Virus record (IMG/VR): IMGVR_UViG_3300027956_000006
DNA length: 64,000 bases
DNA from: a virus
Strand: one strand, 5' to 3'
A model generated the notes under the pieces. That model was not told where the DNA came from. It worked only from the letters and a program-made list of their open reading frames with translations, and ran no database searches. This document shows positions 24,447 to 61,863 of the stretch, in pieces. Made by a program: the position numbers and the translations under genes. Position 1 is the first letter of the stretch, and each line of letters begins with the position of its first letter.

Positions 24447-24788
24447 ATGAAAATCTTTGTACTTGACGATATGCAAGAACGGCACGACGCTTATAGAAAA
24501 AAATTCCCTGATGCTGAAATAATATCATTATATGATGCAATAGAAGCAATCGCCCATCTTACCAAGCATTTATATGAGTACGATTTATTGTGTTTAGACC
24601 ATGATTTAGGTAATCGTATATATGTTGATATTAATGATGAAAATACTGGGAGTACCGTTGCGAAGTTCTTAGCTGATAAAGAAATAAAATGCCCTATTGT
24701 TATACACAGTCTTAATATTGATGGAGCAAAAAATATGCAGTCTTATTTACCAAAAGCGCACAGAATCCCTTTCTTTTTCAACTTGTAA
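24447..24788 (+). CDS. stand-alone receiver (REC/CheY-like) domain protein?
   Basis: MKIFVLDDMQ start and DLLCLDHDLG resemble receiver-domain acidic pocket and phospho-acceptor region; 113 aa. Confidence 0.3.
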   Translation: MKIFVLDDMQERHDAYRKKFPDAEIISLYDAIEAIAHLTKHLYEYDLLCLDHDLGNRIYVDINDENTGSTVAKFLADKEIKCPIVIHSLNIDGAKNMQSYLPKAHRIPFFFNL

Positions 24789-25364: not shown

Positions 25365-26294
25365 ATGGACAATCAAGAAGTTATTCAGCATTACCTAGAT
25401 TCTCTTATGACATTAAGTAAAGAGACTTTAAAAAATAAGACTTACTTTTTAAACCAATTTCATAATGATCTAAAGAAGCCGTTTGATACAATTACATCAA
25501 ATGATTTACGGAAATATATTATTAATAAAAAAGAATCTGGTAAATGGATAAAAGCAAGTACTGTTTTACAATATATAACATTATTAAAAACATTTTATAA
25601 ATTCCTTGTCAATGAGAATTATATAAAAGATGAAAATAATCCTACTAAAACATTAAAGGCTCCGCGTCAGCACTCTCAAGGGGAACTACGCACTATGTCC
25701 CTTGATGAAATACGAAAATTATTAAAAAGTGTTGAAAGCCCAGCAGTTGAGTTGCGTGATAAGCTTATCTTTTATTTAGCTATGACTTCTGGATTGCGTG
25801 CCTCTGAAATATGTTCAATTAAAAAAAGTAATATCGATTTAACAAAACGTTTGATTTATATCCCCAAAGAAGATGTTAAAGGGCAGTATAGAGAAAAACT
25901 AGTTCCTATTTCTAACAGAACAAAAGAAATCTTAGAACTGTATTTAATTAAATACCCCACATTCAGTGATTTTTTATTTGAAAACCGTTTTAATAAAAAG
26001 TTAGCACGTTTGGCTATATATAACGCTATGAAATTAGTAATTGATGCGGCGTTCCCCTACACAGTAGCTGAAACAAAAGAACAAGTTTCTCGTGTATGGA
26101 AAAAACCTTACGGATCACATATCGCTCGACATACTTTTGCTACCCGTTGGATTGAATCTGGTGGTGATTTACACGCGCTAAGAGCAATTATGGGCTGGAG
26201 ATCGTTTAACCAATTAGATCGTTATGTCAATGTTTCACCAGAATTTATTAAAAACTCTGCATTTAAGGTAGAGCGTAAACTACTAAAGGTGTAA
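25365..26294 (+). CDS. tyrosine recombinase / phage integrase
   Basis: C-terminal catalytic region GSHIARHTFATRWIESGGDLHALRAIMGWRSFNQLDRYVNV (HxxR...Y), with LRASEI box upstream. Confidence 0.85.
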   Translation: MDNQEVIQHYLDSLMTLSKETLKNKTYFLNQFHNDLKKPFDTITSNDLRKYIINKKESGKWIKASTVLQYITLLKTFYKFLVNENYIKDENNPTKTLKAPRQHSQGELRTMSLDEIRKLLKSVESPAVELRDKLIFYLAMTSGLRASEICSIKKSNIDLTKRLIYIPKEDVKGQYREKLVPISNRTKEILELYLIKYPTFSDFLFENRFNKKLARLAIYNAMKLVIDAAFPYTVAETKEQVSRVWKKPYGSHIARHTFATRWIESGGDLHALRAIMGWRSFNQLDRYVNVSPEFIKNSAFKVERKLLKV

Positions 26295-26448: not shown

Positions 26449-27435
26449 ATGCGACCACAAACATTAGATGAATTCCAAGGTGAAAGTAATCGTGATGTTA
26501 TTGAAAGATTGCGCATTGCGATTGCTTCAGCAAAACATAGAAATACAGTTCTACCTAATATTTTGTTCTATGGAGAACCTGGATTAGGTAAAACAACATT
26601 ATCTAATATTGTTGCTAACGAAATGAACTCTAAGTGTATTGTAAGAACGGGCGGCTCAATTTCATCACAAAAAGATATTTTCGCTATACTCTATGAAATA
26701 GATGCAATACAAGAAAACAATAAAAATGCTTTATTATTTTTTGATGAAATACACAAATTATCGGTAAAAGATATGCCTGAAGAAATGTTTTATTCTATTC
26801 TAGAGGACCATATTTTTTATTCTAATTTAGCAGGGAAAGAGTTAATGCTTGATAATAAAAACATTATGATTACCGACAATGTTTTAACCACGAAAGAATC
26901 ATTCTCTATAGTAGGAGCAACAACAAGCCCTGGTGCGTTAAAAAAACCTTTACGCGACAGATTTACTCTACAATGTTATTTAAAAGCTTATTCAGTTGAA
27001 GATTTAATAAAAATTATAGTATTTAATTCAACAAAAGAAAACATTGCCATTGAAGAAAACGCGATAAAAGAATTAGCGCAACGTGCACGCGGAGTACCAA
27101 GAATTGTTATTAATTTTCTAAAATCTTGCCGCGATAGATCAATTTTTAAAAATGAACAAGCTATTACCCTACCAACTGTATTAGAAGAAATGAAATTGCA
27201 GTGCATCGAAGAGGATGGCTTAACGCAGCTGGATTTAAAGGTCCTATCTACTTTGGCACAACAGAAAAAAGGAATGGGATTACGCACATTAGCAGGTACA
27301 TGCAGTCTTGATGTTACGACATTAGAAGAAATGGTATTACCTTTTTTGTCCGCTCGGTCTTATGTCATTACTACAAGTAAGCGTTTCATTACCGACTTAG
27401 GGCAACAAAGGTTAAATAAGTATTTATCAAAATAA
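26449..27435 (+). CDS. ruvB: Holliday junction branch-migration ATPase RuvB-like
   Basis: LFYGEPGLGKTTLSNIVANEM Walker A, LFFDEIH Walker B, GATTSPGALKKPLRDRF sensor region, ARGVPRIV; collinear with RuvB. Confidence 0.85.
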   Translation: MRPQTLDEFQGESNRDVIERLRIAIASAKHRNTVLPNILFYGEPGLGKTTLSNIVANEMNSKCIVRTGGSISSQKDIFAILYEIDAIQENNKNALLFFDEIHKLSVKDMPEEMFYSILEDHIFYSNLAGKELMLDNKNIMITDNVLTTKESFSIVGATTSPGALKKPLRDRFTLQCYLKAYSVEDLIKIIVFNSTKENIAIEENAIKELAQRARGVPRIVINFLKSCRDRSIFKNEQAITLPTVLEEMKLQCIEEDGLTQLDLKVLSTLAQQKKGMGLRTLAGTCSLDVTTLEEMVLPFLSARSYVITTSKRFITDLGQQRLNKYLSK

Positions 27436-30022: not shown

Positions 30023-30558
30023 AACATAAAAAGAAAAAAGAAACAACAGAAGGTAAAGGGGATAATGTTTTAACTTCACAAGGTGAAATAGGGACACCAA
30101 CGATTGAAATTATTGATCTAACAAGAAGATTATTAGAATTAGAAGAACGTTATGAGAAAGAAAAACAATTAACATCTGAATTATATGAACAAAAAGAAAG
30201 ACTAGAAATTGAGCTGTATGACCATATGAAAAATGTTGGGATAGAGCAATTTCGGACAGCAGAATTTGGATTAATTTCATGTGCAAACCGATTATGGGGA
30301 AAAATAACTAATTTAGAAATAGCTGAAAAATGGTTGAAAGATAATGGATTGTTCCATGAAGTTTTAAAATTAAAACCAGTTGTAGCTCGTGTTAATGAAA
30401 TTATTAAAAAAAGATTAGAAGAAGGGCAATCTATTCCACCTGGTTTTGATTATACATTAACTAGAACAATTAATCATAGGAGTAAATAATCATAGGGGTA
30501 AATAATATATTTAAATCTAAATTTAAAATAGGGTAGACACCTATACAAAGGAGAAAAA

Positions 30559-31140
30559 ATGAAAAAAATAGTTGTATTAGTATTAGCTATGTTATGTATG
30601 GTAATAAGTATCGCCATCGCAATGCCTTCATACGAAGATAACTCTAACACAAATGAACAAGGCCAATTACAAGGGCAAATACAAGGACAGATGCAAAATC
30701 AGCTTCAAGGACAAGCTCAGGGCCAAGGACAAATTGCTGTAGGTGAAACAGCACAAGATGTATCAATATCTGGAGATGAAACAAAAGTAAAATCGTACGC
30801 TGTTTCTTACCCTGCTCTTTCTGGCGGTGAAGGAATATCTCAAGCAAATGCTTACTCTATATTTGGCGGATTAGGGTTATCACAAACCGAAAAATATAAA
30901 GTATATATTGTACAGATTCAAGCGATTGAAGCTAGTACAGTTTTAACTGCAGAGCAAAAAGTAGCATATATTAATACTTTAGCTACTAAAATGATGAAAA
31001 CAAATAAAACACAACGGTGGTTAGGGTTTGGTCCAGAAACATCTGGACGTAATTTATTTAATTTATTTGGTATCTTATCTTGGGATTCAGTGTGGGCTGA
31101 AAGTCAAAAACCTTTTCAGTCTAAAAAAGATATTAAGTAG
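30559..31140 (+). CDS. secreted protein with Gln-Gly-rich tandem repeats
   Basis: Signal peptide plus QGQLQGQIQGQMQNQLQGQAQGQGQ repeats. Confidence 0.4.
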   Translation: MKKIVVLVLAMLCMVISIAIAMPSYEDNSNTNEQGQLQGQIQGQMQNQLQGQAQGQGQIAVGETAQDVSISGDETKVKSYAVSYPALSGGEGISQANAYSIFGGLGLSQTEKYKVYIVQIQAIEASTVLTAEQKVAYINTLATKMMKTNKTQRWLGFGPETSGRNLFNLFGILSWDSVWAESQKPFQSKKDIK

Positions 31141-31200
31141 TTTTATATAGGCGTCTACCCTATTTTATATTAATTAAATATTGAAGGAAGGAGGTAAACA

Positions 31201-35040: not shown

Positions 35041-38000
35041 ATGGATTCTTATGAAAATCAATTTATTTATGTTGATGGTTATTATGAAAAATCTTCCGGT
35101 CATGCTACTCCCTGGAAAAGAATTAAAATCTCTGAAATACCTAATTTAAAGAAAAAAGCAGAAAATTTCAACGTTTTTGTTACAGCACAACAATTCTGTT
35201 CACCACAAAGAGTAGAAGAGGAGTTACTTTGGGGGCCTTTATACTTTGATTTAGATGCTTCCGAACAATATCCTATTGAAATAGCAAAAGAAGATGCGCG
35301 TAAACTGGTTGATTTTTTTGTGAAAGGCCATGGTATCAACCACGAGTATGTACGTAGTTATTATTCCATTATTGGTGACACACCTGTATTAATTAAGCAA
35401 AATAATGGTAAGGTCAGATTAATTAGCATACAACAAGTTGTTGAAGAATTTAAAAGAACAAAAAATCTAAAAGTTTATTCTTTAGATCCTACTACAAAAA
35501 AATCTAAATTTTGTAATATATATGATACATTATCACACAAAGAACATGTTATTAATGTTTATCACGAATGTTCAAATTTACCACTTATTATTACTAATGA
35601 TCATTCTGTATATGTTGTTAATGAGAATTTAGAATTAATAGTTAAAAAGGGTAACGAATTACAACGTAATGATTATTTAGTAACATTTAATTCATTAGAT
35701 TATGATTTTGGCAATAATAATGCAAAACGCCCTAATTATACTATATCTTATAAGAATAAATCAATAAAAATTAATAATGATATTGCTAAATTTATAGGAT
35801 TTTTTGTTAGTGAAGGTCATATCTCTACTGATCAACAGAAATATTGTCGATTTTGTGGTAATGTTGGATTGTCTCGTATTGGAATAGGATTTTCATTTCA
35901 TTGTAAAGAAAAAGAATATATCGAATTTATTATAAAAACAGCAAAACAATATTTTAATTTACAAGCACATTCCCATACCTCTAATAATTGTACACAGATA
36001 TTATTTCATTCGCGTGAATTAGCTATTTTAATGGAGCAACTATGTGGAAAAGGTGCAATTAATAAACATTTTCCTGATGAATTTTTAAGTTATAGAAAAA
36101 ATATTCAAATGGCGCTTTTAGAAGGATATTTAGATGGAGATGGACATTATGATAATTATAGAAATAGATATGGTACTACGATATCAAAAATATTAGCAGA
36201 ACAATTAGTTTGGTTAGGGAAATCATTGGGTTTTTCTTCGACAATCCGTGTTGGTAATTATGACATGACACACAATAGACATTCTCATCTTTCTTATCGT
36301 ATTAGTTTTAAAAAACAAAAATTTACAAAATTTGCACCAGCACCAAGAGATTTATTATTACCAGTTAAACCACTAGGCAATGTTTATAGACAATGTTGTC
36401 CAATATTTCAACAAAAAAATAAACGTGTATTTCGCACATTTTTTCTTCAAAAAAATAGATTAAATAAGCAACAAATATATAAAATTATTCGACTTTTAGA
36501 TCGTTATAAAACAAAAGAATTTGATATATTAAGTAAATCTATTATTACGTCCTATAAACAATTCTTTCAAAATAATCTTTCTGTATTACCAATTACAAAA
36601 ATAATTAAAACAAAAAAGAAAGAAATGGTATATGATTTATCGGTTGATCAAAATGAGAATTTTTTTGGTGGTTCATACCCAATTTTATTACACAATTCTG
36701 GGTCCAAAGGATTCCATGTCTTTGTGCATCCAAATGTCTTAAATGTGCATCCAGACGCAAAATTACATCATATTTTCAAGTCTATAGCACTGTATTTAGA
36801 GCAGCTTTTAGAACTTAAGACGCTAGATACAGCTTCTATTTATTCAAAACGTCGTATGATGCGGCTACCAGACTCTTTACATCAAAAATCTAAGCTTTTT
36901 AAGATAGAATTGCAACATAATGAATTAAATAAGACTATTGAAGAAATACGTGATCTTGCTAAACAGCCAAGAGGTAGCTTATGGCCTGAGGAAGAATTTG
37001 GTAATATCTTACCTGTAGATGATGCGGCCATATTTTATAAGCATTTTGTTGACCTCTATAAGCAGCAAGAAATGATTGAGAAACTTAAGCCTCAAGTTTT
37101 GATACGTAAAACAGGTGAAACTGCTACTTGTGTTAAAGATTTACTTGAAAAGCATATACGTAAAAATGGAACCCGTAATTTAGCTACTATGAATTTAGCT
37201 ACATATTTCAAGGATCAAGGGTTTAATGAAAAAGAGACAATTGATGTTTTACTTCCTTGGGCGTTACGCACACCAAAAGAATTCACTTCTACAAAAGATG
37301 CATCTAAATTGAAAGCATCTACAATTTCATGTATAAAGTCTGTTTTTGGAAGTGATTATCATTTTGTTTGCAGTGTTATGCGTTCTCTTGGAGAAATTGC
37401 ATGTGATTTTGAACATTGTGAAATTGCCAATGAAGAAGATCAAAAACCAGAGAAAGAGATTATATTACATTTATCTGAAGCCTCTAATGCATGTTATATA
37501 AGAAAGAAAATAAAATCCAAAGTGCTAGTGGCAGGTAAAGATACTTCTCCATATTTAGTACCAAGACGTATTAAAATGGTCTGTGTTCCAGATTTAAAGC
37601 AGGAAGATAGTAAATGTAAAGAATGTAAGATGGCAAAACACGGTGGTAATTTTGAATTTGAACTAAATGAACATGATGCTTTATTATTAGAGTGTATCCA
37701 ATGTTCTACAACACAACAAATTAATGTTTTAAGACGTTTAACTGAAACAACTAAATGCAATAAACCAAAGCTTTCGATCCTTGATACAGGCAATGTTGAG
37801 GAATTAGAGATTACTCCAGAAATAGATAAGCAGGTTAATATGGCTGCGGAAGGTAGTGAAGAATATGTTACGCGTAAAGCATATTATATTGGACATAACA
37901 TGCCTTTAAATCAAGAAGTTGAAATATCATGTTATACATATGCTGACCCTAAAACGCAACATGCGGTTCATTTATTTAGTGATTTTTCTTCTGCGGAAAC

Positions 38001-39444
38001 ATCTTTGAATAGTTTTAAAATGGATCCACATAAAGTAAAGGAATTGTCTATTTTCAAACCAAAAAACAATCAAACCATTGATCAGAAAATTCTAGAGATT
38101 CATAAAGATCTTGAGTTAAATGTACATCATATTTGGCAACGTGCACCATTGTTTATTGCTTTTGATCTTGTGTATCACTCAGTTTTAAACTTTTATTTTC
38201 AAGGAGATATTTTACGTAAAGGGTGGTCAGAGTTACTTGTAATTGGTGATTCTGGACAAGCAAAAACGGCTGCGGCACAAAAAATATCCCAGCATTATGG
38301 ATTTGGATATCGTATTTCTGGTGAGGGTGCGCGCAGAACAGGTTTGGCGTATACTTGGCATCAAACTGCTAATCGTTGGTCTGTTTCTTTCGGTGTGATA
38401 CCAAGAAATGATAAGCGTATTGTTTTTATAGATGAGGCCGGTGGTATTGATGATGAAGAATTATCTAAATTGACAGATATGCGTTCTGAAGGTATAGCTG
38501 ATGCAAGAGGTGGCCCGATACCAGCACGTACACATGCTCGTACACGTTTAATTTGGATGACTAATACAAAAACAGGGGCGCCGTTAAATGAATACCCTTA
38601 CCCAGTTACAGCTATACAACAAGTTTTTAGACGTACAGAAGATATAAGAAGGTTCGATTTAGCAATAGCCGTACGTTCTGGTGATGTATCTGATGCTATG
38701 ATACACCAATTAATTTCACAACGTGATAAAGTGGAGCACATATACACATCTTATTTATGCAGAAATCTGATTTTATGGGCATGGACGCGTAAAGTTGATC
38801 AAATTATTATTAAACCAGATGCGGAGCAAGCTATCCTTGAAACTGCAATGCATATGTCTCAGAAATATTCTTCTTTAATACCTCTTGTTGAGCCATCAGA
38901 TCAGCGTAATAAGATAGCACGTTTAAGTGTGGCGATAGCGGCAAGGCTTTTTTCGACTGACGAACAAGGCGAACATATTATTGTTTTATCTGAACATGTA
39001 CATTTTGTACGTGATTTTTTACAAGAACAGTATGATGGTCGTGCATTAGATTATTATAATTATAGTCAATTAAATAAAAGGGAGTTTATAGAGTCTGAAT
39101 TTGAAACGATTAAGAATGAATTTATGCACTTACCAGAGTATAAGTTATTAGCAAGTGCTTTAGTAAAAATGCCTTTTTTCAGAAAAACCATCTTGGAAGA
39201 ATTAGTAGGATATGATAAAGATGATATGCGGAGAACGATTAAGATTTTACATGTGCATAATCTTATGAAAGCTACTTCACATGGATTTAAACTAACTGCA
39301 GCAGGTATTAATTTTTTAAAACGTTTATTAACAACACAAGAACTAGTTAATGCTGGGACTGTGGTAACTATTGAAAATGTACCAATCATAAAAGATACCC
39401 AAGAATATATGAATACGGATGATATTTTTGCTGAAGGTAACTAA
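35041..39444 (+). CDS. bifunctional DNA primase (AEP/prim-pol type) - P-loop helicase, interrupted by an intein
   Basis: N-terminal LYFDLDA (acidic motif I) then intein; C-extein resumes SGSKGFHVFVH (AEP motif II); downstream LLVIGDSGQAKTAAAQ Walker A and VFIDEAGGIDDEE Walker B. Confidence 0.7.
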   Translation: MDSYENQFIYVDGYYEKSSGHATPWKRIKISEIPNLKKKAENFNVFVTAQQFCSPQRVEEELLWGPLYFDLDASEQYPIEIAKEDARKLVDFFVKGHGINHEYVRSYYSIIGDTPVLIKQNNGKVRLISIQQVVEEFKRTKNLKVYSLDPTTKKSKFCNIYDTLSHKEHVINVYHECSNLPLIITNDHSVYVVNENLELIVKKGNELQRNDYLVTFNSLDYDFGNNNAKRPNYTISYKNKSIKINNDIAKFIGFFVSEGHISTDQQKYCRFCGNVGLSRIGIGFSFHCKEKEYIEFIIKTAKQYFNLQAHSHTSNNCTQILFHSRELAILMEQLCGKGAINKHFPDEFLSYRKNIQMALLEGYLDGDGHYDNYRNRYGTTISKILAEQLVWLGKSLGFSSTIRVGNYDMTHNRHSHLSYRISFKKQKFTKFAPAPRDLLLPVKPLGNVYRQCCPIFQQKNKRVFRTFFLQKNRLNKQQIYKIIRLLDRYKTKEFDILSKSIITSYKQFFQNNLSVLPITKIIKTKKKEMVYDLSVDQNENFFGGSYPILLHNSGSKGFHVFVHPNVLNVHPDAKLHHIFKSIALYLEQLLELKTLDTASIYSKRRMMRLPDSLHQKSKLFKIELQHNELNKTIEEIRDLAKQPRGSLWPEEEFGNILPVDDAAIFYKHFVDLYKQQEMIEKLKPQVLIRKTGETATCVKDLLEKHIRKNGTRNLATMNLATYFKDQGFNEKETIDVLLPWALRTPKEFTSTKDASKLKASTISCIKSVFGSDYHFVCSVMRSLGEIACDFEHCEIANEEDQKPEKEIILHLSEASNACYIRKKIKSKVLVAGKDTSPYLVPRRIKMVCVPDLKQEDSKCKECKMAKHGGNFEFELNEHDALLLECIQCSTTQQINVLRRLTETTKCNKPKLSILDTGNVEELEITPEIDKQVNMAAEGSEEYVTRKAYYIGHNMPLNQEVEISCYTYADPKTQHAVHLFSDFSSAETSLNSFKMDPHKVKELSIFKPKNNQTIDQKILEIHKDLELNVHHIWQRAPLFIAFDLVYHSVLNFYFQGDILRKGWSELLVIGDSGQAKTAAAQKISQHYGFGYRISGEGARRTGLAYTWHQTANRWSVSFGVIPRNDKRIVFIDEAGGIDDEELSKLTDMRSEGIADARGGPIPARTHARTRLIWMTNTKTGAPLNEYPYPVTAIQQVFRRTEDIRRFDLAIAVRSGDVSDAMIHQLISQRDKVEHIYTSYLCRNLILWAWTRKVDQIIIKPDAEQAILETAMHMSQKYSSLIPLVEPSDQRNKIARLSVAIAARLFSTDEQGEHIIVLSEHVHFVRDFLQEQYDGRALDYYNYSQLNKREFIESEFETIKNEFMHLPEYKLLASALVKMPFFRKTILEELVGYDKDDMRRTIKILHVHNLMKATSHGFKLTAAGINFLKRLLTTQELVNAGTVVTIENVPIIKDTQEYMNTDDIFAEGN
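35365..36696 (+). mobile_element. intein (Ser1, LAGLIDADG type) inserted at the primase active-site motif
   Basis: Starts SIIGDTPVLI (block A), contains FIGFFVSEGHI and LLEGYLDGDGH LAGLIDADG blocks, ends ...ILLHN followed by Ser+1. Confidence 0.65.
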
Positions 39445-40079
39445 ATACTATGAGTGTAAATAAGAAACAATATATTTGTAATATAATTCATCATGATATT
39501 TTAACAGCTGTAGCAATGTTAAATTCTATGGGCAGACAAAAGCATGCTTTTAAACAGCTGATGATATTGTTAGATTATCTTATTTTAAAAAAGAAAATTA
39601 CTTTAGACATGGTTAAAACTGATCTTAGTATGTCACGAAACACATTTTATCATTATTTCAAAGTATTGAAAAAATTAAGAGTTTGTGTTAAAACATTTAA
39701 TTATACACATAATCAAAGGGTATTTACTTTTAGAAGGTCAGCCTATTTAGAGTTATTTTTATTTTTTGTTTTTAGTGATTGTCGTTGTCCTAAAGTATAC
39801 AATAAGATTGCTGGAAGAAAGATTATGTTAAAAGTGAATGAAAAATTGAATAGTTATAGTAATTTAAAAAAAGAGATAAAGACCTTTAGTAAATCATCGC
39901 AAGAGACAGTAAATGTTGCTATTAATCAACAACCTTTAGGGGACACTTTAACCACAGAACAATCTAATATTGATAAAATATAAATAAATCAAGAAATAAA
40001 TAAATATTCCCATGCATCCACTCGGAAATGTACTTAAGATATTATATAACAACATATTACAACATAATTTAGACATCAT

Positions 40080-40377
40080 CTGTGCATAAACCTGTGTATA
40101 AGTTGGTTAATATATTAATACATAACAAGTTAATCACACAGACTCTTCAATATACTAACCATAGTATATTGTACGGCCACAATATAATCTTCATGGCTAC
40201 TTTTTTTCGTGGGAAATTTATAAATTATCTCTTATGATAAAAAAAATTGTAGAAAAAAAATCCGTGGTAAAGGTAGCGTGGAATACTAATCTTGTTCAGA
40301 ACTATTTTGAAGATATATTTAGATTAACCTATTATGTATTAATGTATTAACCAACTTATACACAGGTTTATGCACAG
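40080..40377. repeat. 46-bp near-perfect inverted repeat pair (40080-40125 and 40332-40377; 1 mismatch) flanking a 206-bp non-coding core
   Basis: CTGTGCATAAACCTGTGTATAAGTTGGTTAATATATTAATACATAA vs reverse complement of TTATGTATTAATGTATTAACCAACTTATACACAGGTTTATGCACAG. Confidence 0.8.
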
Positions 40378-40382
40378 GGTTT

Positions 40383-40616
40383 TTGAGCAAATTATGCCAA
40401 ATGTTTACAATTATAAACATTTTCATGAAAAAAATATGCGAGAATTGCGGTTCGAAACTTGAATCTAGAGATCAGAATTTCTGTACAATATGCGGAATTC
40501 AGCAGGATTTGACTAAACAATTATGTATTATATGTAAAAGACAGATTGATCAAAATTGGCAGTTCTGTGCTAATTGTGGCGTAAATTTGAAGCAAATTAA
40601 TGTGGTTGAGAGATAA
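40383..40616 (+). CDS. double zinc-ribbon protein
   Basis: CENCG...CTICG...CIICK...CANCG. Confidence 0.4.
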   Translation: MSKLCQMFTIINIFMKKICENCGSKLESRDQNFCTICGIQQDLTKQLCIICKRQIDQNWQFCANCGVNLKQINVVER

Positions 40617-41341: not shown

Positions 41342-41638
41342 ATGAAAATTAATCAATACTGTGAAGTATGCCATAAAATAGCTGTTAGTAAGGGGTTTTG
41401 GGATGGGGAAAGAAATCAAGGTGAATTAATTGCTTTGATGCACTCAGAATTGTCGGAAGCTTTAGAGGCGTTGCGTTCAAATGATGAAACTAAAAATAAT
41501 ATTGCTGAGGAATTAGCGGATACTTGTATACGTATTTTTGATTATTGTGGTGCGTTTGGACTTGATCTTGAAAATGCTATTAATAATAAAATAGAAACCA
41601 ATAAACAACGCACTAGATTACATGGGAAAAAATTTTAA
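41342..41638 (+). CDS. MazG-like nucleoside triphosphate pyrophosphohydrolase
   Basis: HSELSEALEAL and EELADTCIRIFDY (EExxE...D metal-binding helices). Confidence 0.65.
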   Translation: MKINQYCEVCHKIAVSKGFWDGERNQGELIALMHSELSEALEALRSNDETKNNIAEELADTCIRIFDYCGAFGLDLENAINNKIETNKQRTRLHGKKF

Positions 41639-42525
41639 TGGATATTATAACAAAAGAACGTAGGAGTAAATTTATTATTGCTGCAAAAAATAATATAAAA
41701 GATATTATCTGCCCTTCGAGATTTAATATTTTATGTTGGGGACATCAATGTTTATTTAATCCTTGTTGTAGTTATTGTTATTTACATTATACTGCGCGCT
41801 TTATTGATGCACCCATTGTTTATAAATCAAATAAAATATTAGATGAGGTGCAACAATGGTTAAAAAATACTTCTTTACCTCATATACTCAATACAGGTGA
41901 GTTAGCTGATAGTTTTATGTTGCAAAATAATCAGATTCTTGCTAACCTAATGGATATGTTTGAGGCACAAACTAAACATAAATTATTATTTGTAACAAAA
42001 AATAATATCATACCAGCAGAAATAGAAAATAACATTTACACAAAAAAATATGTACAAACAATTTTTTCTTTTTCAGTGAACAGCGCTGAATTTTCTTCAA
42101 AATATGAAAAAGGAGTGCCCAATCCGTTTGAAAGATTAGCGACCGCGTATCGTATTAAAAAACAAGGTCAACGTGTACGTATCCGTATTGACCCAATTGT
42201 TGAAATAAAAGATTATAAAACAGAGTATAAAAATCTAATTGATGTTCTTAATAGTTTTTTACAACCAGAAAGGGTTACTTTGGGGTCATTATGGTTATTC
42301 CAAACCTTACCTCAAGTGGATTGTGATGAAGATGTTGCAAAATATGTGATTGATAATAATGATAGAGACAAAAAATTACGTATACCTTTTGAGAAGCGTA
42401 TTGAAATATATCAATGGTTTATTAAAAATTTACAAATTAGTGAAATTGGATTATGCAAAGAAACGATACAATGCCATCGTGCTTTAAAATTTAGGAAAGA
42501 TATGAAATGTAATTGTAATATATAG
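41638..42525 (+). CDS. radical SAM protein, spore-photoproduct-lyase-like (SplB family?)
   Basis: Cys cluster CWGHQCLFNPCCSYCYL resembling the SplB-type CxxxCxxC-YCY motif. Confidence 0.4.
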   Translation: MDIITKERRSKFIIAAKNNIKDIICPSRFNILCWGHQCLFNPCCSYCYLHYTARFIDAPIVYKSNKILDEVQQWLKNTSLPHILNTGELADSFMLQNNQILANLMDMFEAQTKHKLLFVTKNNIIPAEIENNIYTKKYVQTIFSFSVNSAEFSSKYEKGVPNPFERLATAYRIKKQGQRVRIRIDPIVEIKDYKTEYKNLIDVLNSFLQPERVTLGSLWLFQTLPQVDCDEDVAKYVIDNNDRDKKLRIPFEKRIEIYQWFIKNLQISEIGLCKETIQCHRALKFRKDMKCNCNI

Positions 42526-55917: not shown

Positions 55918-55989
55918 CGCAGGGTAGTGTAGGGGGAACACACTTGTCTCATACGCAAGAGAACAGTGGTTCAAATCCACTTCCTGCAA
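55918..55989 (+). tRNA. tRNA-Met (anticodon CAU); C1xA72 mismatch suggests initiator-like or Ile2/lysidine type
   Basis: Hand-folded cloverleaf: D stem GTGT/ACAC, anticodon stem CTTGT/GCAAG loop CTCATAC, T arm AGTGG-TTCAAAT-CCACT. Confidence 0.65.
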
Positions 55990-56049
55990 CAAATTTAATA
56001 GTATAAACAAACATGACTATAAAAGTTAGATTCGAACATAAGATGTATA

Positions 56050-56207
56050 AAAACCAAAGCCGTAAGCTTTGGCCCGCAGCCATTTTATGTTCGGGTAGCT
56101 TTAGGCCAGCGTTTGTTTCTACAGATAATATAACCGATTCACAGTAGAACGTAGCTGACAGATCTAGGACCTAAAGCTACCGACTACTAAAAAGAGTCGG
56201 TTTTTTT
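56050..56207 (+). ncRNA. structured ncRNA of unknown class ending in an intrinsic terminator (candidate Y-like / sRNA)
   Basis: Hairpins CCAAAGC-CGTAA-GCTTTGG and CCCG...CGGG; 14-bp helix GGTAGCTTTAGGCC / GGACCTAAAGCTACC with a bulged A enclosing 59 nt; ends with CCGACT-ACTAAAAAG-AGTCGG + T8. Confidence 0.45.
56179..56207 (+). terminator. Rho-independent terminator
   Basis: CCGACT(ACTAAAAAG)AGTCGG followed by TTTTTTT. Confidence 0.7.
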
Positions 56208-56213
56208 ATTTAT

Positions 56214-56286
56214 GCCGCTGTGGTCTACGGGTTAGGACGCGAGAATTTCACTCTCGCAAAGCGAGTTCGATCTCTCGCCAGCGGTG
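56214..56286 (+). tRNA. tRNA-Glu (UUC)
   Basis: Acceptor GCCGCTG/CAGCGGT, D stem GTCT/GGAC, anticodon stem GCGAGA/TCTCGC loop ATTTCAC, T arm GCGAG-TTCGATC(T)-CTCGC. Confidence 0.65.
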
Positions 56287-56294
56287 CTAGAATT

Positions 56295-56370
56295 GCCTCG
56301 TTAGCATAGTTTGGCTCAATGCGTTGGCTTGTCACGCCAAAGATCGGGGATTCAAATTCCCCACGGGGCG
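56295..56370 (+). tRNA. tRNA-Asp (GUC)
   Basis: Acceptor GCCTCGT/ACGGGGC, D stem GCAT/ATGC, anticodon stem TTGGC/GCCAA loop TTGTCAC, T arm GGGGA-TTCAAAT-TCCCC. Confidence 0.85.
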
Positions 56371-56379
56371 CTAAGAATT

Positions 56380-56636
56380 TAGTTAATGAACTAGCTACGG
56401 GTAAGCCTTAATGACTTATCTGAGGAAAGTCCAGGCTCTACATAGCAGCGTATCAAAGCTAACAACTTTGAGCAATCATAAAATTGACGATAAGAGGACA
56501 GAGACGAGAAAAATGAGACGACCAATCTCTACGCAGAGCAAGATCAAACAGAACCTGACCTGCTCGGTCGATAGGTTCGGGTAACGATCGCATAGACGGA
56601 TGGCTAGATAAACAAAACCTGGCTTATCATTAACTA
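56380..56636 (+). ncRNA. rnpB: RNase P RNA (compact, ~255 nt)
   Basis: P4 strands GAGGAAAGTCCAGGCTC (hallmark GGAAAGUCCGGGCUC) and ACAAAACCTGGCTTATC (ACAGAACCCGGCUUAUC) with compensatory CGG>CAG / CCG>CTG changes; P1 GTTAATGA / TCATTAAC closes the molecule; CATAGCAGCG after P4 matches CAUAGGGCA. Confidence 0.65.
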
Positions 56637-56646
56637 AATACTTTTT

Positions 56647-56732
56647 GGAGGGTATGTGCATGGTTAGATTGGCACGCCAGTTTGCTAAACTGGAAATCGA
56701 AAGAAACGCAGGAGCGTCACCTGCACCCTCCG
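56647..56732 (+). tRNA. tRNA-Ser (GCU), class II with long variable arm; atypical T loop
   Basis: Acceptor GGAGGGT/ACCCTCC perfect, D stem GTGC/GCAC, anticodon stem CCAGT/ACTGG loop TTGCTAA, 14-nt variable arm, T arm GCAGG-AGCGTCA-CCTGC. Confidence 0.55.
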
Positions 56733-56750
56733 CAAAAAAATTAAGAAAAA

Positions 56751-57434
56751 ATGAAAAAATATGTTTTATATAAAACAATCAATAAAATAAATAAGAAATT
56801 TTATATTGGTGCCCATATAACAGAGAATATTAATGATAATTACATAGGATCGGGATTATATTTATGTCAAGATATTAAAAAATACGGTAAAAATAATTTC
56901 AAAAAGATAGTTTTGAATTGTTTTAATTCGAAAGATGAATTATTATGTGCTGAAAAAAAATTATTGGACGCTAGGTACATAAAAAAGAATAAGCATCGAT
57001 TATATAATAGAAATGGTGGCGGGGCAGGATCGTGGATATATAATAATTATTTTTCTCCAAATAGAAAAGAACGATATAAAAGAATTTATATAAAATTCAA
57101 AAAATTGTTGCGCAATAGAGAATGGAGAAAGGAATTTTGTACAAAACTATCAATAGGACAGAAACAAGCTAGAGCTAAAGGCTTGTGTAAAGGATTTTTG
57201 AATAAAAAGCATACTAATAAATTTAAAAGGTTTATCGGTAAAATAAATGCAATTCAAAATAAAGGCAGAAATAATCCTCAATATAACAAAAAATGGATAT
57301 CGAATCTAAGATTTAAGAAATCTGTTCTTATTAAAAAAAACCTGATACAAGATTATTTAGCTCAAGGTTGGATAATTGGTAGAAGATTTAATGCTGGGTG
57401 TTTTGGGAAATTGGAAGAGTTGACGGAAGTATAG
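56751..57434 (+). CDS. GIY-YIG homing endonuclease
   Basis: N-terminal YVLYKTINKINKKFYIGA (GIY...YIG) ; basic C-terminal DNA-binding region; located between tRNA/ncRNA genes. Confidence 0.7.
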   Translation: MKKYVLYKTINKINKKFYIGAHITENINDNYIGSGLYLCQDIKKYGKNNFKKIVLNCFNSKDELLCAEKKLLDARYIKKNKHRLYNRNGGGAGSWIYNNYFSPNRKERYKRIYIKFKKLLRNREWRKEFCTKLSIGQKQARAKGLCKGFLNKKHTNKFKRFIGKINAIQNKGRNNPQYNKKWISNLRFKKSVLIKKNLIQDYLAQGWIIGRRFNAGCFGKLEELTEV

Positions 57435-57599
57435 AGATCCGACTTGTCTTGAAAACAGGTAACCGTTAATTACGGCATGTAGGGGCAGAACCTACCTCTT
57501 CCGCAAGATAGGAGCTTAAGCTAACAGCAAACTGTCGGTCTCCAAAACCGAATTTACTGGGGCGGAACCAGTAGCTCCTGCAATTGGTGAAAAAAGTTA

Positions 57600-57628
57600 C
57601 TGACAAATTAATTAATTATGCTATAATA
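57600..57628 (+). promoter_or_regulatory. sigma70-type promoter (CTGACA-17-TATAAT) driving downstream tRNA cluster
   Basis: aCTGACAaattaattaattatgcTATAATatat. Confidence 0.55.
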
Positions 57629-57637
57629 TATATAATT

Positions 57638-57711
57638 GGCACTATGGCTGAGTGGTCGAAAGCGATTGTCTGCAAAACAATTTATCAAGAGTTCAAATCT
57701 CTTTAGTGCCT
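57638..57711 (+). tRNA. tRNA-Cys (GCA)
   Basis: Acceptor GGCACTA/TAGTGCC, anticodon stem ATTGT/ACAAT loop CTGCAAA, T arm AAGAG-TTCAAAT-CTCTT. Confidence 0.75.
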
Positions 57712-57715
57712 CAAC

Positions 57716-57794
57716 GAGTCCGATGTCGACTGGTCAGACACTTGCCTTTTAAGCAAGCGCATTTTGCAAGCGAGTTCGATTCTCGCCGGGCTCA
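57716..57794 (+). tRNA. tRNA-like with UUU anticodon (Lys?) and anomalous 12-nt variable region
   Basis: Acceptor GAGTCCG/CGGGCTC, D stem TGTC/GACA, anticodon stem CTTGC/GCAAG loop CTTTTAA, T arm GCGAG-TTCGATT-CTCGC; 79 nt. Confidence 0.45.
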
Positions 57795-57801
57795 CTAGTT
57801 C

Positions 57802-57873
57802 GGGCGTATAGCAAAATGATAATGCAGTTGGCTCTTAACCAGCATATTGGAGGTTTGAGTCCTCCTACGCCCA
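57802..57873 (+). tRNA. tRNA-Lys (CUU)
   Basis: Acceptor GGGCGTA/TACGCCC, anticodon stem GTTGG/CCAGC loop CTCTTAA, T arm GGAGG-TTTGAGT-CCTCC. Confidence 0.7.
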
Positions 57874-57992
57874 CATTATTGCTCCGGAAGACAAGGTGCG
57901 AATCCTTATATATAACAGCTTGCGGTGAAGGCGCCAACCAACCCAAAAGCGACATTATATTAGTGTAATTTTAGCACACCGGGGTTTTAAAT

Positions 57993-58063
57993 TACAGTGT
58001 CCTCTAACGATAGGAGAATGGGCTTTGAACCCGTCAATGAAGGTTTGATTCCTTCCGCTGTAG
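57993..58063 (+). tRNA. tRNA-Gln (UUG)
   Basis: Acceptor TACAGTG/CGCTGTA, anticodon stem ATGGG/CCCGT loop CTTTGAA, T arm GAAGG-TTTGATT-CCTTC; weak 3-bp D stem. Confidence 0.5.
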
Positions 58064-58491
58064 CTAAAATGGAGATGATATGACTGTTGAAGAAAAGAAA
58101 TTAATTGATGATATGACACAATACGAATTATGTCATAGATGGAGATTTGCTAAAATTGGAGATCCTTTATTCCAAGGAGATACTGGTGAATATTATAGTA
58201 AAATTTTAAAAGAAAAAGGTGGTTTTACACCAGAAATTTCAAAACAATTAGGGTGGTTTTAAATGAAAGTCAAAAATTATTTAGGATGGTTGCAAGATAT
58301 GGAGCATTATCGTGAGGGGTATACTTGGCATTATTATATAAATAAAGAAAAAAGTATTTGTGGAAAAAGCAAACATCCTACACAACAATGGAATGCTGCA
58401 TATATGAGAGGTAGAACCTGTAAAAAATGCTTAAACTATTGTAAAAAAAATAAATTAGAAGTTATATAATATCTTATAGAGTATATTAAAT

Positions 58492-58562
58492 TGCGAAGTC
58501 GACTAATGGTAGGCCGCAACGCTCTGAACGTTGAAATCAAGTTTCGATTACTTGCTTCGCAG
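58492..58562 (+). tRNA. tRNA-Gln (CUG)
   Basis: Acceptor TGCGAAG/CTTCGCA, anticodon stem CAACG/CGTTG loop CTCTGAA, T arm CAAGT-TTCGATT-ACTTG; imperfect D stem. Confidence 0.5.
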
Positions 58563-58576
58563 CTAGAAAGGTAATA

Positions 58577-59905
58577 ATGAAAAATAAAATATTTGAGTTG
58601 TTTAAAGATTTTGAGATATTTCTTGTTGGCGGTTCAGTAAGAGATAAACTCTTGAATATAGAAACTAACGATTTAGATTTCGCTACTAGCGCAACCCCAG
58701 ATCAATCTAAAGCAATACTCGAAGCTGCTGGGTATCATCCGCATACTGTTGGATGGGCATTTGGCACAGTTGGTATTGTAAATGATCAATATGAGGTACA
58801 TATTACGACATATCGTAAGGCTGAAGATTATCAGCGCGATAATCGAAACCCGACAGTTGAATGGGGAAAAACTATTCAAGAAGATCTTATAAGACGTGAT
58901 TTTACCATTAATGCACTAGCACAAAATAGCACCGGCGAGATCATAGATTTATTTAATGGAGTACAACATCTTAAAGATAAGTTACTTGTTACACCGATCG
59001 ATGCGAATATAGCGTTTAATGATGATCCTTTAAGGATGTTACGAGCTGTAAGATTTAAGGCAAGACTTGGTTTTGAATATAGCACAAATGTACAAGAAGC
59101 TTTATATAGACAAGCACATCGTTTATTAATTCTTCCAAAAGAAAGGATCCAAGAAGAATTAAATAAGATTTTAATGACAGATAATGCGGCAGATGCATTA
59201 CATGATTTATATCAATTTAGATTACTAGATTATATAATTCCTGAATTAAAGATGTTAAGTAAGATCGAGCAAGACAGTATTTACCATTCAAAAAATGCAT
59301 TATTACATACCATAGAGGTATTGCGTAATACTTCAAAAGATATAATCTTAAGATATGCCGCAATCTTTCACGACTTGGGTAAAATGGTAACCCGGTCTGT
59401 AGAAAATGGTAATGTCCATTTTTATCATCACGAGAATATTTCGGCGCTTATGACATATCCAATTCTACAAAGATTAGGTTTACCAAAACGCTGGTGTAAA
59501 GATATTACATATCTAGTGAGAAATCATATGCGTGCTAATACCTATGAAAAAGACTGGTCAGATAGTGCAGTAAGACGTTTTATACGTGATACTGGTGAAT
59601 ATTGCGATAGACTTTTAGTACTTAGTAGAGCTGATATCACTAGTCATAACCCAATTACTGTGCAGAAGCATCTCGATTCTTTAAATGATTTTGAAAGACG
59701 TATTAATGAATTAAGAAATTTTAAAGAATTAAAATGCCCAATAAGTGGTTTAGTTATTATGGAATTCTTTGATTTACCAGCCTGCAAGAAAGTTGGTGAA
59801 ATAAAAGAGTTGATTCTGAATGCTATCATTAATGGTGAATTAAAAATTGAAGACAGTGAAGAAGTAATATTAGAATATGCGAAACGCAAGATGGAGATAA
59901 AATAA
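58577..59905 (+). CDS. cca: tRNA nucleotidyltransferase (CCA-adding enzyme), class II with HD domain
   Basis: FLVGGSVRDKLLN...NDLDFAT head-domain motif, RDFTINAL, ERI..EL, and HD motif AAIFHDLGK. Confidence 0.85.
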   Translation: MKNKIFELFKDFEIFLVGGSVRDKLLNIETNDLDFATSATPDQSKAILEAAGYHPHTVGWAFGTVGIVNDQYEVHITTYRKAEDYQRDNRNPTVEWGKTIQEDLIRRDFTINALAQNSTGEIIDLFNGVQHLKDKLLVTPIDANIAFNDDPLRMLRAVRFKARLGFEYSTNVQEALYRQAHRLLILPKERIQEELNKILMTDNAADALHDLYQFRLLDYIIPELKMLSKIEQDSIYHSKNALLHTIEVLRNTSKDIILRYAAIFHDLGKMVTRSVENGNVHFYHHENISALMTYPILQRLGLPKRWCKDITYLVRNHMRANTYEKDWSDSAVRRFIRDTGEYCDRLLVLSRADITSHNPITVQKHLDSLNDFERRINELRNFKELKCPISGLVIMEFFDLPACKKVGEIKELILNAIINGELKIEDSEEVILEYAKRKMEIK

Positions 59906-60222
59906 TGTTAGAAATTAATAAAAAATTAGGAAGAGAATAGAGCATACATATGCAATATTTATTAACAGAAGAAGAATATTTAAAATTGGAAAGAAACCCA
60001 GATAAAGATAAGACTGAATCTCTTTTAAATGATTTACGTACTAAAGTTTTAACATTAGCTAATTTTAAATGTCTGCATCAAATTACAGACGTAGATTATG
60101 AAAAAGGATTAAATGTTGATGAGGGTTATTGTGATAATTGTCCATTAAGTTTTTGTAAAAATGAAAACCTTAAAATGAAACATTATCTATGTGGTTGTGA
60201 TACTTTATATTCTAAATAAACA

Positions 60223-60298
60223 CAGTGCGTGGGCCAACTTGGATTAGGTCGCCTGGCCTGGAACCAGGAGGTTGAAGGTTCAAATCCTTCCGTGCTGA
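60223..60298 (+). tRNA. tRNA-Pro (UGG)
   Basis: Acceptor CAGTGCG/CGTGCTG (two GU), D stem GGCC/GGTC, anticodon stem CCTGG/CCAGG loop CCTGGAA, T arm GAAGG-TTCAAAT-CCTTC. Confidence 0.65.
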
Positions 60299-60303
60299 CT
60301 TTC

Positions 60304-60347
60304 GGAGTAGTTAAGTACATTAAAAGAGTTCGCGACTCTCTACTCCA
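60304..60347 (+). ncRNA. tRNA-like minihelix / truncated tRNA (acceptor stem + T arm only)
   Basis: GGAGTAG...CTACTCC 7-bp acceptor-like stem enclosing AGAG-TTCGCGA-CTCT T-arm-like hairpin; no anticodon arm; 44 nt, immediately upstream of HNH gene. Confidence 0.4.
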
Positions 60348-60366
60348 CTAAAATATTTGAAAGGAG

Positions 60367-60882
60367 TTGATTAAGTTGAGAGTTTTAGTTTTAAATAGTT
60401 CGTATGAATTTCTTGGTTTTTGTGATTGGCAATCTGCCATTTGTGCTAAAGTATCCGGTAAGGTTTATGTTGAGGAAGAATATGAGCAGGAAGTAAGATC
60501 ACCTTCAACAACTATGCGTATTCCTGCCGTTATTAGATTACGTCATTATGTAAAAGTTACATATGAAAAAGTGATGTATGTTTCATATACTAAACGTAAT
60601 GTGCATCTAAGAGATAACTATACTTGTCAATATTGTCATACAAAACATGATGCTAGAAAATTAGGTATTGATCATGTATTACCTGAATCACGAGGGGGTT
60701 TAACAACTTGGGAAAATACCGTATCTTGTTGTCATGGATGTAATTTAGTGAAAGATAATAGAACACCTGAAGAAGCAAAAATGAAACTTATGCGTATTCC
60801 AACTAAACCTAGAGGGTTCAGAGAAATCATTAGGATTAAAATTGGTGAGTTACATGATCTTTGGGAAAAGTATTTATTTTAG
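60367..60882 (+). CDS. HNH homing endonuclease
   Basis: CQYCHTKHDARKLGIDHVLPESRGGLTTWENTVSCCHGCNLVKDN (HNH with Zn-binding Cys pairs); sits between tRNA genes. Confidence 0.75.
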   Translation: MIKLRVLVLNSSYEFLGFCDWQSAICAKVSGKVYVEEEYEQEVRSPSTTMRIPAVIRLRHYVKVTYEKVMYVSYTKRNVHLRDNYTCQYCHTKHDARKLGIDHVLPESRGGLTTWENTVSCCHGCNLVKDNRTPEEAKMKLMRIPTKPRGFREIIRIKIGELHDLWEKYLF

Positions 60883-60887
60883 AAATT

Positions 60888-60961
60888 GGTGGGTATCGTC
60901 TAGCGGTTAAGGATACAAGGTCGTGACCCTTGTGACACGAGTTCGAGTCTCGTTACTCACC
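60888..60961 (+). tRNA. tRNA-His (GUG) with G-1:C73
   Basis: Extra 5' G pairing with discriminator C, acceptor GTGGGTA/TACTCAC, anticodon stem CAAGG/CCTTG loop TCGTGAC, T arm ACGAG-TTCGAGT-CTCGT. Confidence 0.8.
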
Positions 60962-60970
60962 CTAAGATAT

Positions 60971-61053
60971 GCGTAGGTATCCAAATGATGAAGGGCGCAG
61001 TCTGTAAAACTGTTACATTCGAAACGTTGCAAGTTTGAATCTTGCCCTACGCA
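60971..61053 (+). tRNA. tRNA-Tyr (GUA), class II
   Basis: Acceptor GCGTAGG/CCTACGC perfect, anticodon stem GCAGT/ACTGT loop CTGTAAA, long variable arm, T arm GCAAG-TTTGAAT-CTTGC. Confidence 0.75.
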
Positions 61054-61066
61054 CTAATTTGAAAGG

Positions 61067-61543
61067 TTGAATATGAAAATTGGTATTATTGGTCATGGTG
61101 CAGATAAATTCACAGAAGTTAGTAGATTAAATGCAGCAGAATTAATTGCAGCTATTTTAAAAGATTATTGTGTACAATGTATTGAGAAAAGAGATTATGA
61201 TACAGGATTTGTTTCAGGACATTCACCTGTAGGTGGGGTTGATATATGGGGAGAAAAAATAGCAAAACTATTAGGTATTCCGTTAGAACTTAAGATACCT
61301 AAACAAAAATGTTGGGACGCAGAATACGGATTTAAACAACGTAATTTAGATATTGCAAGTTCTTCAGATATACTACATATAATTTTAGTAGATAAATACC
61401 CGAAAGATTATAAAGGTAGAAAGTTTAGTAAATGTTACCATTGTAATAGTTCTGATCATGTAAAGTCTGGAGCATGTTGGACAGCAAAAGAAGCTCGAAA
61501 ATTGAATAAAGAAGTTATATATCACATAATTAGAAATGAATAA
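61067..61543 (+). CDS. hypothetical protein with C-terminal CCHC zinc knuckle (possibly SLOG/LOG-like fold)
   Basis: KIGIIGHGADKF ... CYHCNSSDHVKSGAC. Confidence 0.3.
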   Translation: MNMKIGIIGHGADKFTEVSRLNAAELIAAILKDYCVQCIEKRDYDTGFVSGHSPVGGVDIWGEKIAKLLGIPLELKIPKQKCWDAEYGFKQRNLDIASSSDILHIILVDKYPKDYKGRKFSKCYHCNSSDHVKSGACWTAKEARKLNKEVIYHIIRNE

Positions 61544-61706
61544 ATTAATTAAAACCGAGTCTGGATGTGCTTATTGTCAGCAAAAAGGGTTTATTCATAT
61601 CCATACTGATATGCAAACATATGCTTTAAATGGTTTTGTAGATAATGAAGAAGCGATAAAAATGTTTAATATAGTATGTGAAAAAATAAAATATTTTAGA
61701 TATGAT

Positions 61707-61777
61707 GGGCAGGTCGTCTAATGGGAGGATTTCTGTTTTGCAAACAGAGGATAGGGATTCGAGTTCCCTCCAGTCCA
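61707..61777 (+). tRNA. tRNA-Ala (UGC)
   Basis: Acceptor GGGCAGG/CCAGTCC (one AxA mismatch), D stem GTCT/GGAT, anticodon stem TCTGT/ACAGA loop TTTGCAA, T arm AGGGA-TTCGAGT-TCCCT; 5' end overlaps stop of ORF 61536-61721. Confidence 0.6.
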
Positions 61778-61863
61778 CAAAAATTCGGCTCGTAGCGGAG
61801 ACGCAAGCATCAGATTAAGTCTGAAGTAGGTAGAGGTGGCGTACTACCGAGCTGACCAAAATG

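Follow-up and report, generated by a model that had tools for sequence, protein, structure and literature searches.

The stretch analysed, hereafter the window, comprises 64 kb of phage-like DNA of about 30% GC with all genes on the plus strand, and it has no DNA similarity to the phages in GenBank. The same sequence was assembled independently in JGI metagenomes 3300009085 and 3300009169 and in two SRA runs (SRR5468433 and SRR5468435). Within the window, a gene for a primase-MCM helicase fusion is followed by a 177-aa ORF, a non-coding gap of 441 bp (39984–40424) and a gene for a double zinc-ribbon protein, after which come genes for a DUF2188 protein, a thioredoxin, a MazG-like protein and a spore-photoproduct-lyase-like protein (41638–42525). 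Of the non-coding stretches between the window's protein-coding genes, this gap is among the two largest, and it holds the element described here, which spans 298 bp and has no coding capacity. The coordinates of the individual features are collected in Table 1.

An intein that carries a LAGLIDADG homing-endonuclease domain splits the primase-MCM gene (product residues 128–552); the proteins of relatives, at 61–73% identity, are intein-free and about 1025–1040 aa long. Among named proteins, the closest to the window's primase-MCM is the MCM protein of Bacillus phage phBC6A51 (32% identity), and a single-sequence search of IMG/VR for close protein relatives returned none. Matches in a plasmid collection were distant only (27–32%), and we found no evidence for a phage-plasmid lifestyle, which was considered and set aside. 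The ORF after the primase-MCM gene belongs, throughout the relatives, to one fast-diverging family (18–29% identity between them) with weak, consistent winged-helix matches. Searching a set of 5.8 billion proteins with the 177-aa product recovered no homologue other than itself, and its single-sequence structure model, with a pLDDT of 41, was unusable. This winged-helix-like product is a candidate for a sequence-specific partner of the gap. No DnaA/Orc-type initiator was found among the neighbouring phage genes, and the AAA+ gene at 26449–27435 is RuvB-like.

Elsewhere in the window, a cluster at 55918–63719 contains 22 tRNA genes and a tmRNA gene (62851–63243), and there are genes for an RtcB RNA ligase (18245–19477) and a cyclic-phosphate receiver-domain protein (24447–24788); together they make up the gene repertoire of a large phage equipped for tRNA repair. 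A second inverted repeat, at 30520–31171 with 30-nt arms at 90%, exactly brackets an ORF (30559–31140) encoding 193 aa without a Pfam or PHROG match. The two Pam3-like genes that flank this ORF are adjacent in a relative (L009), with no counterpart of the ORF between them, and the ORF may be an inserted gene cassette.

Table 1. Coordinates of the element, its parts and the surrounding features (window numbering).
Feature	Position	Strand	Remarks
Tyrosine recombinase gene	25365–26294		Phage_integrase family; about 14 kb upstream of element
Primase-MCM helicase fusion gene	35041–39444	+	Presumed replicative helicase-primase
177-aa ORF	39450–39983	+	Directly upstream of gap; fast-diverging family, weak winged-helix matches
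Most AT-rich, least stable stretch nearby	39947–40008	.	ATAAATAAAT repeats
Left arm of inverted repeat	40080–40154	.	46 nt near-perfect, up to 40125; 75 nt at 85%
Left tandem box pair	40081–40101	-	Boxes 40093–40101 and 40081–40089
Perfect 12-bp palindrome, left arm	40107–40118	.	TTAATATATTAA
One-mismatch DnaA box, inner left arm	40130–40138	+	TTAATCACA; orientation opposite to left pair
Core between extended arms	40155–40302	.	148 bp; average base composition
Right arm of inverted repeat	40303–40377	.	Near-perfect portion 40332–40377
Right-arm copy of palindrome	40339–40350		TTAATGTATTAA; contains the sole arm mismatch
Right tandem box pair	40356–40376	+	Boxes 40356–40364 and 40368–40376; 48–49 nt before next start codon
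Weak sigma-70-like promoter match	40383–40411	+	TTGAGC-17-TACAAT, 9/12; between right pair and zinc-ribbon gene
Double zinc-ribbon protein gene	40425–40616	+	63 aa; first gene past gap

A preliminary description of this DNA had reported a long inverted repeat at this position, and the repeat is real, with 46-nt arms that differ at a single base (T40113 on the left, G40344 on the right). A repeat finder lengthened the arms to 75 nt at 85% complementarity, with 148 nt in between, and no longer inverted repeat exists in the window. Further copies of the arm, which had been suggested as a check, were sought with a 32-mer; in the window it occurs at two places only, the two arms, and none of 100 shuffled sequences gave any match. 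Identity between the arms falls inward from their outer ends, with 33 identical positions followed by one mismatch in 13, two in 10 and a replaced 8-nt block. The core had been called AT-rich, which it is not: the GC content is 28.6% for the 206-bp core and 30.4% for the inner 148 bp, against a window mean of 30.4%. The core contains an 8-bp hairpin (40165–40186), three CGTGG motifs on one strand (at 40208, 40263 and 40277), and two of the three matches to CGTGGNAA in the whole window. The palindrome within the arms is a candidate site for a dimeric helix-turn-helix protein. A dif/Xer-like site in the arms was considered as well and rejected after a comparison by eye with the Bacillus dif sequence, in which nothing more than a short TTATGTA stretch matched, and that out of order.

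In every assembly, the element is located mid-contig. Logan contigs end about 30 nt inside the arms (L002 ends at window position 40108 and L005 starts at 40347), as expected of a graph assembler that meets a 33-nt exact repeat, with the k-mer assumed for Logan being about 31. The repeat thus breaks short-k assemblies, and fragmented assemblies may under-represent the element.

The outer 21 nt of each arm, a feature missed in the preliminary description, consist of two DnaA boxes, TTATACACA-GGT-TTATGCACA. Both are perfect matches to the DnaA-box consensus TTATNCACA, and they are arranged head to tail with a 3-bp spacer, giving a 12-bp register. The two pairs face each other over 254 bp and measure 296 bp end to end, while the inner boxes are 263 bp apart from centre to centre, equal to 25.0 helical turns. 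The mirror of the additional TTAATCACA box is degenerate in the right arm. Shuffled sequences are expected to yield 0.145 tandem pairs per 64 kb (at most one mismatch, 3-nt spacing), and the window has exactly two. Single boxes with at most one mismatch are also in excess, with 12 in 39122–40419 (39.1–40.45 kb) against 2.2 expected (P about 3e-6, or 1e-4 with repeat copies counted once). Six such boxes fall in 40081–40419, comprising the four perfect boxes of the arms and two one-mismatch boxes in the gap. The element has the three or more boxes at a mean spacing below 100 bp by which DnaA-box clusters are recognised (quoted in PMC7561715). Both arms also have tandem boxes no more than 3 bp apart, which are one component of a basal unwinding system (BUS) and the box arrangement found most often in bacterial origins (PMC8287927). 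A BUS further comprises a run of DnaA-trios (3'-GAT-5' type) within about 13 bp of the boxes and, past the trios, an AT-rich unwinding region. A search for trios on each of the four sides of the pairs found a longest trio-like run of 1.

To place the arm sequence among bacteria, we scanned reference genomes for exact matches to the arm 21-mer, using one genome per species (185,579 species, 596 Gb). Two matches were found, where about 0.3 would be expected by chance as estimated from base composition, and both lie in DnaA-box clusters of Bacillota. The first, from Clostridium sp. UBA701, lies 280 bp upstream of dnaA, within the rnpA–dnaA spacer (oriC1), in a locus whose rnpA, dnaA, dnaN and recF genes were confirmed by Pfam and whose spacer has 16 boxes; here, the identity with the phage extends to 26 nt, ATCTGTGCATAAACCTGTGTATAAGT. 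The second is in a DnaA-box cluster of another Bacillota metagenome-assembled genome (MAG). That the 21-mer matches only inside bacterial DnaA-box clusters is strong indirect evidence that the arms are DnaA-binding sites, and we predict, with a high degree of confidence, that they form a binding module for the host initiator DnaA. Outside the 26-mer, the phage and UBA701 sequences resemble each other only weakly (72% over 83 nt of AT-rich DNA). Capture of host-origin DNA is therefore no more than a possibility, alongside convergence on a constrained site, and was dropped as a claim. The Clostridium-origin box match, the 30% GC content and the spore-photoproduct-lyase-like gene hint at a spore-forming, AT-rich Bacillota host.

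A DnaA-box cluster in Bacillota bacterium OH_SBlB_88 (L018 7100–7440) contains a duplicated ACAGGTTTATKCACATATTAACGG unit and is flanked by a polysaccharide deacetylase gene and a minus-strand ORF without a Pfam match. The 8 kb fetched around it contains no dnaA gene, and this may be a non-origin cluster.

Relatives of the phage were picked by primase-MCM identity (61–74%) and their loci fetched; eight were counted, L013 being a duplicate of L012 and L019 of L010. The stretch from the primase-MCM gene to the zinc-ribbon or thioredoxin genes is hypervariable, with HNH, MT-A70, T5orf172, PLD-like and Dam-type genes depending on the phage. A gap of 300–500 bp lies one gene past the primase-MCM gene in five of the eight loci, and four of these five gaps contain DnaA-type boxes. 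L010 and L012, and likewise their duplicates, have TTATCAACA-GAG-TTATTAACA at 69 nt before the next gene, to which L012 adds a perfect TGTGGATAA and a TGTTAATAA on the left side, and L009 has ATATACACA-GG-TTATTAACA. L008 has a 37-nt inverted repeat of its own with TTTTGCACA in each arm, and its 11 kb contain no perfect TTWTNCACA box besides these two. In every locus with boxes on both sides, the left ones lie on the minus strand and the right ones on the plus strand, matching the window.

The relatives therefore keep the boxes and not the arm sequences, and this conservation of the box arrangement by position, while the surrounding sequence is not conserved, argues for a function at the DNA level. 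We found no tandem pairs elsewhere in about 110 kb of close-relative loci, and none in 780 kb from 79 loci of distant relatives (35–40% primase-MCM identity); across the loci sampled, the tandem-box feature is confined to the close clade. Four points are directly established: that the repeat exists, that it carries the boxes, that these are identical to sequences in bacterial DnaA-box clusters, and that relatives conserve their position.

The remaining relatives differ at this position. In L006 (960–1606) and L014 (4800–5284), at 72–74% primase-MCM identity, nothing separates the winged-helix-like gene from the zinc-ribbon gene, the two abutting or overlapping, and both the spacer and the DUF2188 gene are missing; judged from these loci, the DnaA-box spacer is either dispensable or sited elsewhere in these phages. 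The gap of L015 has no DnaA boxes and other repeats instead. At 3785–3961, it contains AAACTCGATACTCGAC, which is a tandem ACTCGAY heptamer, in two direct copies, together with an inverted pair, CGTAAAAACGTC/GACGTTTTTACG, around a T/A-rich 100 nt, which resembles a distinct repeat specificity at an equivalent position. L012 also has, at 8035–8196, a 36-nt inverted repeat (97%) around a GC-rich, structured 90-nt core. This segment is a 136-nt insertion relative to L010 (about 7990–8035), beside a short hairpin that is single-copy in L010, and inverted copies evidently arise repeatedly in this spacer.

Perfect tandem box pairs are present in at least 120 IMG/VR contigs. None of the IMG/VR stretches that we fetched has a dnaA gene, and five have a partner pair on the opposite strand within 1.5 kb. 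Tandem DnaA boxes are thus not rare in phages; the layout and setting of the window element are new. Dense arrays of at least six consensus boxes with inverted tandem pairs occur in two unrelated viral contigs of 42–48% GC (L203 7880–8025 and L180 1710–1910), in non-coding DNA next to genes for endolysin, terminase and portal proteins, perhaps close to the genome ends.

The module sits behind the primase-MCM gene and the small winged-helix-like gene in the main non-coding gap of the replication-gene cluster. We tentatively propose that the element is a DnaA-assisted replication origin, or an origin control region, serving the phage primase-MCM, a reading to which we give nearly, though not quite, an even chance. 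A replication origin was among the five possibilities raised, with no choice between them, in the preliminary description and is the one that fits best, although on grounds that had gone unseen there, namely the DnaA boxes and the same-position element of the relatives. DnaA binding, origin function and every step after binding are what we infer from these observations. In the proposed sequence of events, host DnaA would assemble on both arms, possibly joined by the winged-helix protein on the arm palindromes or the core motifs. The arm-bound assembly would then bend or destabilise the adjacent DNA, and the phage primase-MCM would be loaded there. The AT-rich stretch at 39947–40008 contains 40-mers of 7.5–10% GC and a 60-mer within the window's top 0.8%; situated 72 bp beyond the left pair, it is no more than a candidate unwinding element. 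As far as we are aware, origins of bacterial viruses that have MCM-type primase-helicases are yet to be described, and a DnaA-assisted origin, if true, would offer a testable entry into how replication starts in such phages.

Several observations stand against an origin. The core is of average GC content, the unstable stretch is only in the top 0.8% and 72 bp outside the repeat, and there is no trio run. L006, L014 and L015 lack the element, and the disappearance of an essential origin would not be expected unless it had been relocated. In four phages, the distance from the right pair to the next gene is a fairly constant 49–69 nt, a spacing that fits a promoter-linked role equally well, and the paired boxes in the inverted repeats of T5 lie far from its mapped origins. 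The GC-skew analysis suggested in the preliminary description was run and does not bear on the matter: cumulative skew rises monotonically with no inflection, near the element or elsewhere, and is uninformative on this window because all genes are on one strand.

A more specific form of the origin reading takes archaeal origins as its model, in which Orc1/Cdc6 is bound to inverted ORB elements. By analogy, DnaA on the two inward-facing pairs would play the part of Orc1/Cdc6 and open the site, the phage MCM would be loaded, and the boxes on a replicating phage would also drain DnaA from the host origin. We regard this hybrid arrangement as unlikely; if true, it would be a case of a bacterial initiator serving an archaeal/eukaryotic-type helicase.

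The main rival of the origin reading is that the boxes bind DnaA for another end, either coupling downstream transcription to the DnaA status of the host or forming a multicopy sink that titrates DnaA from the host oriC, as known for datA in E. coli and for cloned oriC box clusters in B. subtilis. We consider this somewhat unlikely, with evidence on both sides. The right pair keeps its distance to the next ORF, 49 nt in the window and 69 nt in L009, L010 and L012, despite differing downstream genes, which fits a promoter-linked role. The identical pair in UBA701 belongs to the upstream region of dnaA, oriC1, and clostridial oriC1 lacks an unwinding element (PMC7561715). The phage element has neither an AT-rich core nor trios. 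T5-like phages keep paired boxes in repeats away from their origins, and in some of the at least 120 IMG/VR contigs that carry perfect tandem pairs, these lie by lysis and terminase genes rather than replication genes. Against this, the site directly behind the primase-helicase and an inverted layout with two sides point to something beyond a single operator, promoter matches in the gap region are no more numerous and no better than in shuffled sequences, and our literature search found no experimental precedent for a phage DnaA sink.

The inverted layout could itself be incidental, arising from a recent neutral duplication of one ancestral box pair, for example by template switching, such that the repeat adds no function. 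Consistent with this, L009, L010 and L019 have one tandem pair only, in the right-arm orientation, the arm identity decays inward from the boxes, and L012 shows inverted copies arising in the spacer. However, L008 and L012 independently have boxes in both orientations and in the same left/right order, which suggests that a two-sided layout is selected, and a neutral origin of the repeat is in our view quite improbable.

We give little credence to a role for the element as RNA, in which the hairpin of a read-through transcript would be an RNase III site, a terminator or a structured non-coding RNA. The coding strand does have a very stable fold (-116 kcal/mol, z = -12.7), and unrelated hairpins occur at the same position in relatives, but the opposite strand folds as well (z = -13.2). 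Three transition mismatches yield a single G-U pair in the plus strand and two in the minus, favouring neither. Rfam 15 gave nothing above threshold, its sole match being the microRNA precursor MIR6217 at 22.7 bits against a gathering threshold of 110, a terminator scan found none, and the arms consist of protein-binding motifs.

A MITE or other selfish insertion that landed in the spacer, as offered in the preliminary description, would account for terminal inverted repeats around 298 bp of non-coding DNA, for the absence of the whole spacer from L006 and L014, and for the hypervariable spacer of the relatives, in which the 136-nt repeat-bearing segment of L012 is an indel relative to L010. 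The sequence fails to bear this out. There is no target-site duplication, the flanks reading ...GACATCAT / element / GGTTTTTG... (CAT against GGT, with no shared bases), no second copy exists in the 64-kb window, and the arm 32-mer has no exact match in IMG/VR. In reference genomes, the arm matches bacterial DnaA-box clusters only, and the diverged boxes at the same position in relatives point to vertical descent rather than repeated insertion, leaving an insertion highly improbable.

The same description named an invertible switch, in which a site-specific recombinase such as the tyrosine recombinase at 25365–26294 would flip the segment to turn a promoter on and off. Long inverted repeats around a short non-coding segment, a Phage_integrase-family gene in the window and weak promoter-like matches on both strands inside the element would suit this idea. 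The nearest recombinase, though, is 14 kb away, the flanking genes being those for the primase-MCM, winged-helix-like and zinc-ribbon proteins, and the three independent assemblies (the window, L001/L003 and L004) share one orientation at 100% identity. The arms are, moreover, longer than usual for switches and made of DnaA boxes, and relatives retain the boxes and not the arm sequences; a switch is very unlikely indeed. A cruciform, also proposed, can be set aside in that extrusion is not easy with arms this far apart (148–206 bp).

We compared the element, read as a DnaA-assisted origin or control region, with known systems. In the origins of staphylococcal pathogenicity islands (SaPIs), two sets of short repeats flank an AT-rich central region downstream of primase and helicase-initiator genes; the protein that binds these repeats is not DnaA but a Rep helicase encoded by the island itself, and their specificity diverges quickly between relatives. 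The phage element shares the flanking repeats behind a primase-helicase and the fast divergence between relatives, but its repeats carry DnaA boxes and its core is not AT-rich.

Clostridial oriC1 is a DnaA-box cluster of 9–19 boxes (PMC7561715). The link to clostridial and Bacillus oriC1 is one of sequence, through the identical 26-nt stretch in UBA701 and the 21-mer in the cluster of the Bacillota MAG. The matched bacterial clusters differ in having 7–16 boxes in mixed orientation and no long inverted repeat.

In E. coli oriC, boxes R1 and R4 lie at opposite ends, as TGTG.ATAA on the top strand at the left and TTAT.CACA at the right, with the unwinding element outside R1. The phage element similarly has boxes of the high-affinity type at both ends, in opposite orientation and a few hundred bp apart, with an AT-rich stretch outside the left box (39947–40008). 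It differs from E. coli oriC in that each end bears a tandem pair (with 296 bp from one end to the other), in having no demonstrated array of low-affinity sites, in that the stretch considered for unwinding is no more than moderately unstable and 72 bp distant, and in that it adjoins an MCM-type helicase, not DnaB/DnaC.

T5-like phages come closest in the form of the repeat, with DnaA boxes that are always paired, 3 bp apart, within long inverted repeats in the non-coding terminal repeat (bioRxiv 10.1101/866236). These are arranged in the left terminal repeat as IRC-spacer-IRD / IRD'-spacer-IRC', and a role in the injection stop has been proposed, unproven (bioRxiv 10.1101/866236). We checked the T5 sequence and found the same 12-bp TTATNCACAGnn register as in the window. 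Both phages thus have paired boxes 3 bp apart in long, non-coding inverted repeats, and both are large, tRNA-rich and of lytic type. However, T5 has two pairs 52 bp apart in each 131-bp copy, where the window has one pair per arm, and its copies are 3.3 kb apart with genes between, compared with 148–206 bp for the window arms. The orientation is also reversed, with the left copy of T5 on the plus strand and the right on the minus, and T5 infects E. coli, shares no sequence with this phage and keeps its repeats away from its origins. The window element is therefore not a member of the T5 repeat family; it represents a second, unrelated phage lineage with paired DnaA boxes in long inverted repeats, after T5. 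Together with the 120 or more IMG/VR contigs, it suggests that exploitation of host DnaA is commoner in phages than the literature reflects.

The origins of P1 (oriR), F, pSC101 and RK2 borrow host DnaA via boxes at their ends, with their own replication gene alongside, and DnaA-dependent plasmid origins of this sort rely on a Rep initiator that binds iterons of 19–22 bp. The phage element resembles P1 oriR in having boxes at its ends next to the element's own replication gene. No Rep gene and no clear iterons were found in the phage; the gap has three CGTGG motifs and an adjoining winged-helix-like ORF, and the helicase is the phage primase-MCM fusion. By analogy, the element would belong to a known kind, host-DnaA-binding DNA on a mobile element, for which the nearest precedents are P1 oriR, the R1 and R4 boxes of E. 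coli oriC and the T5 repeats.
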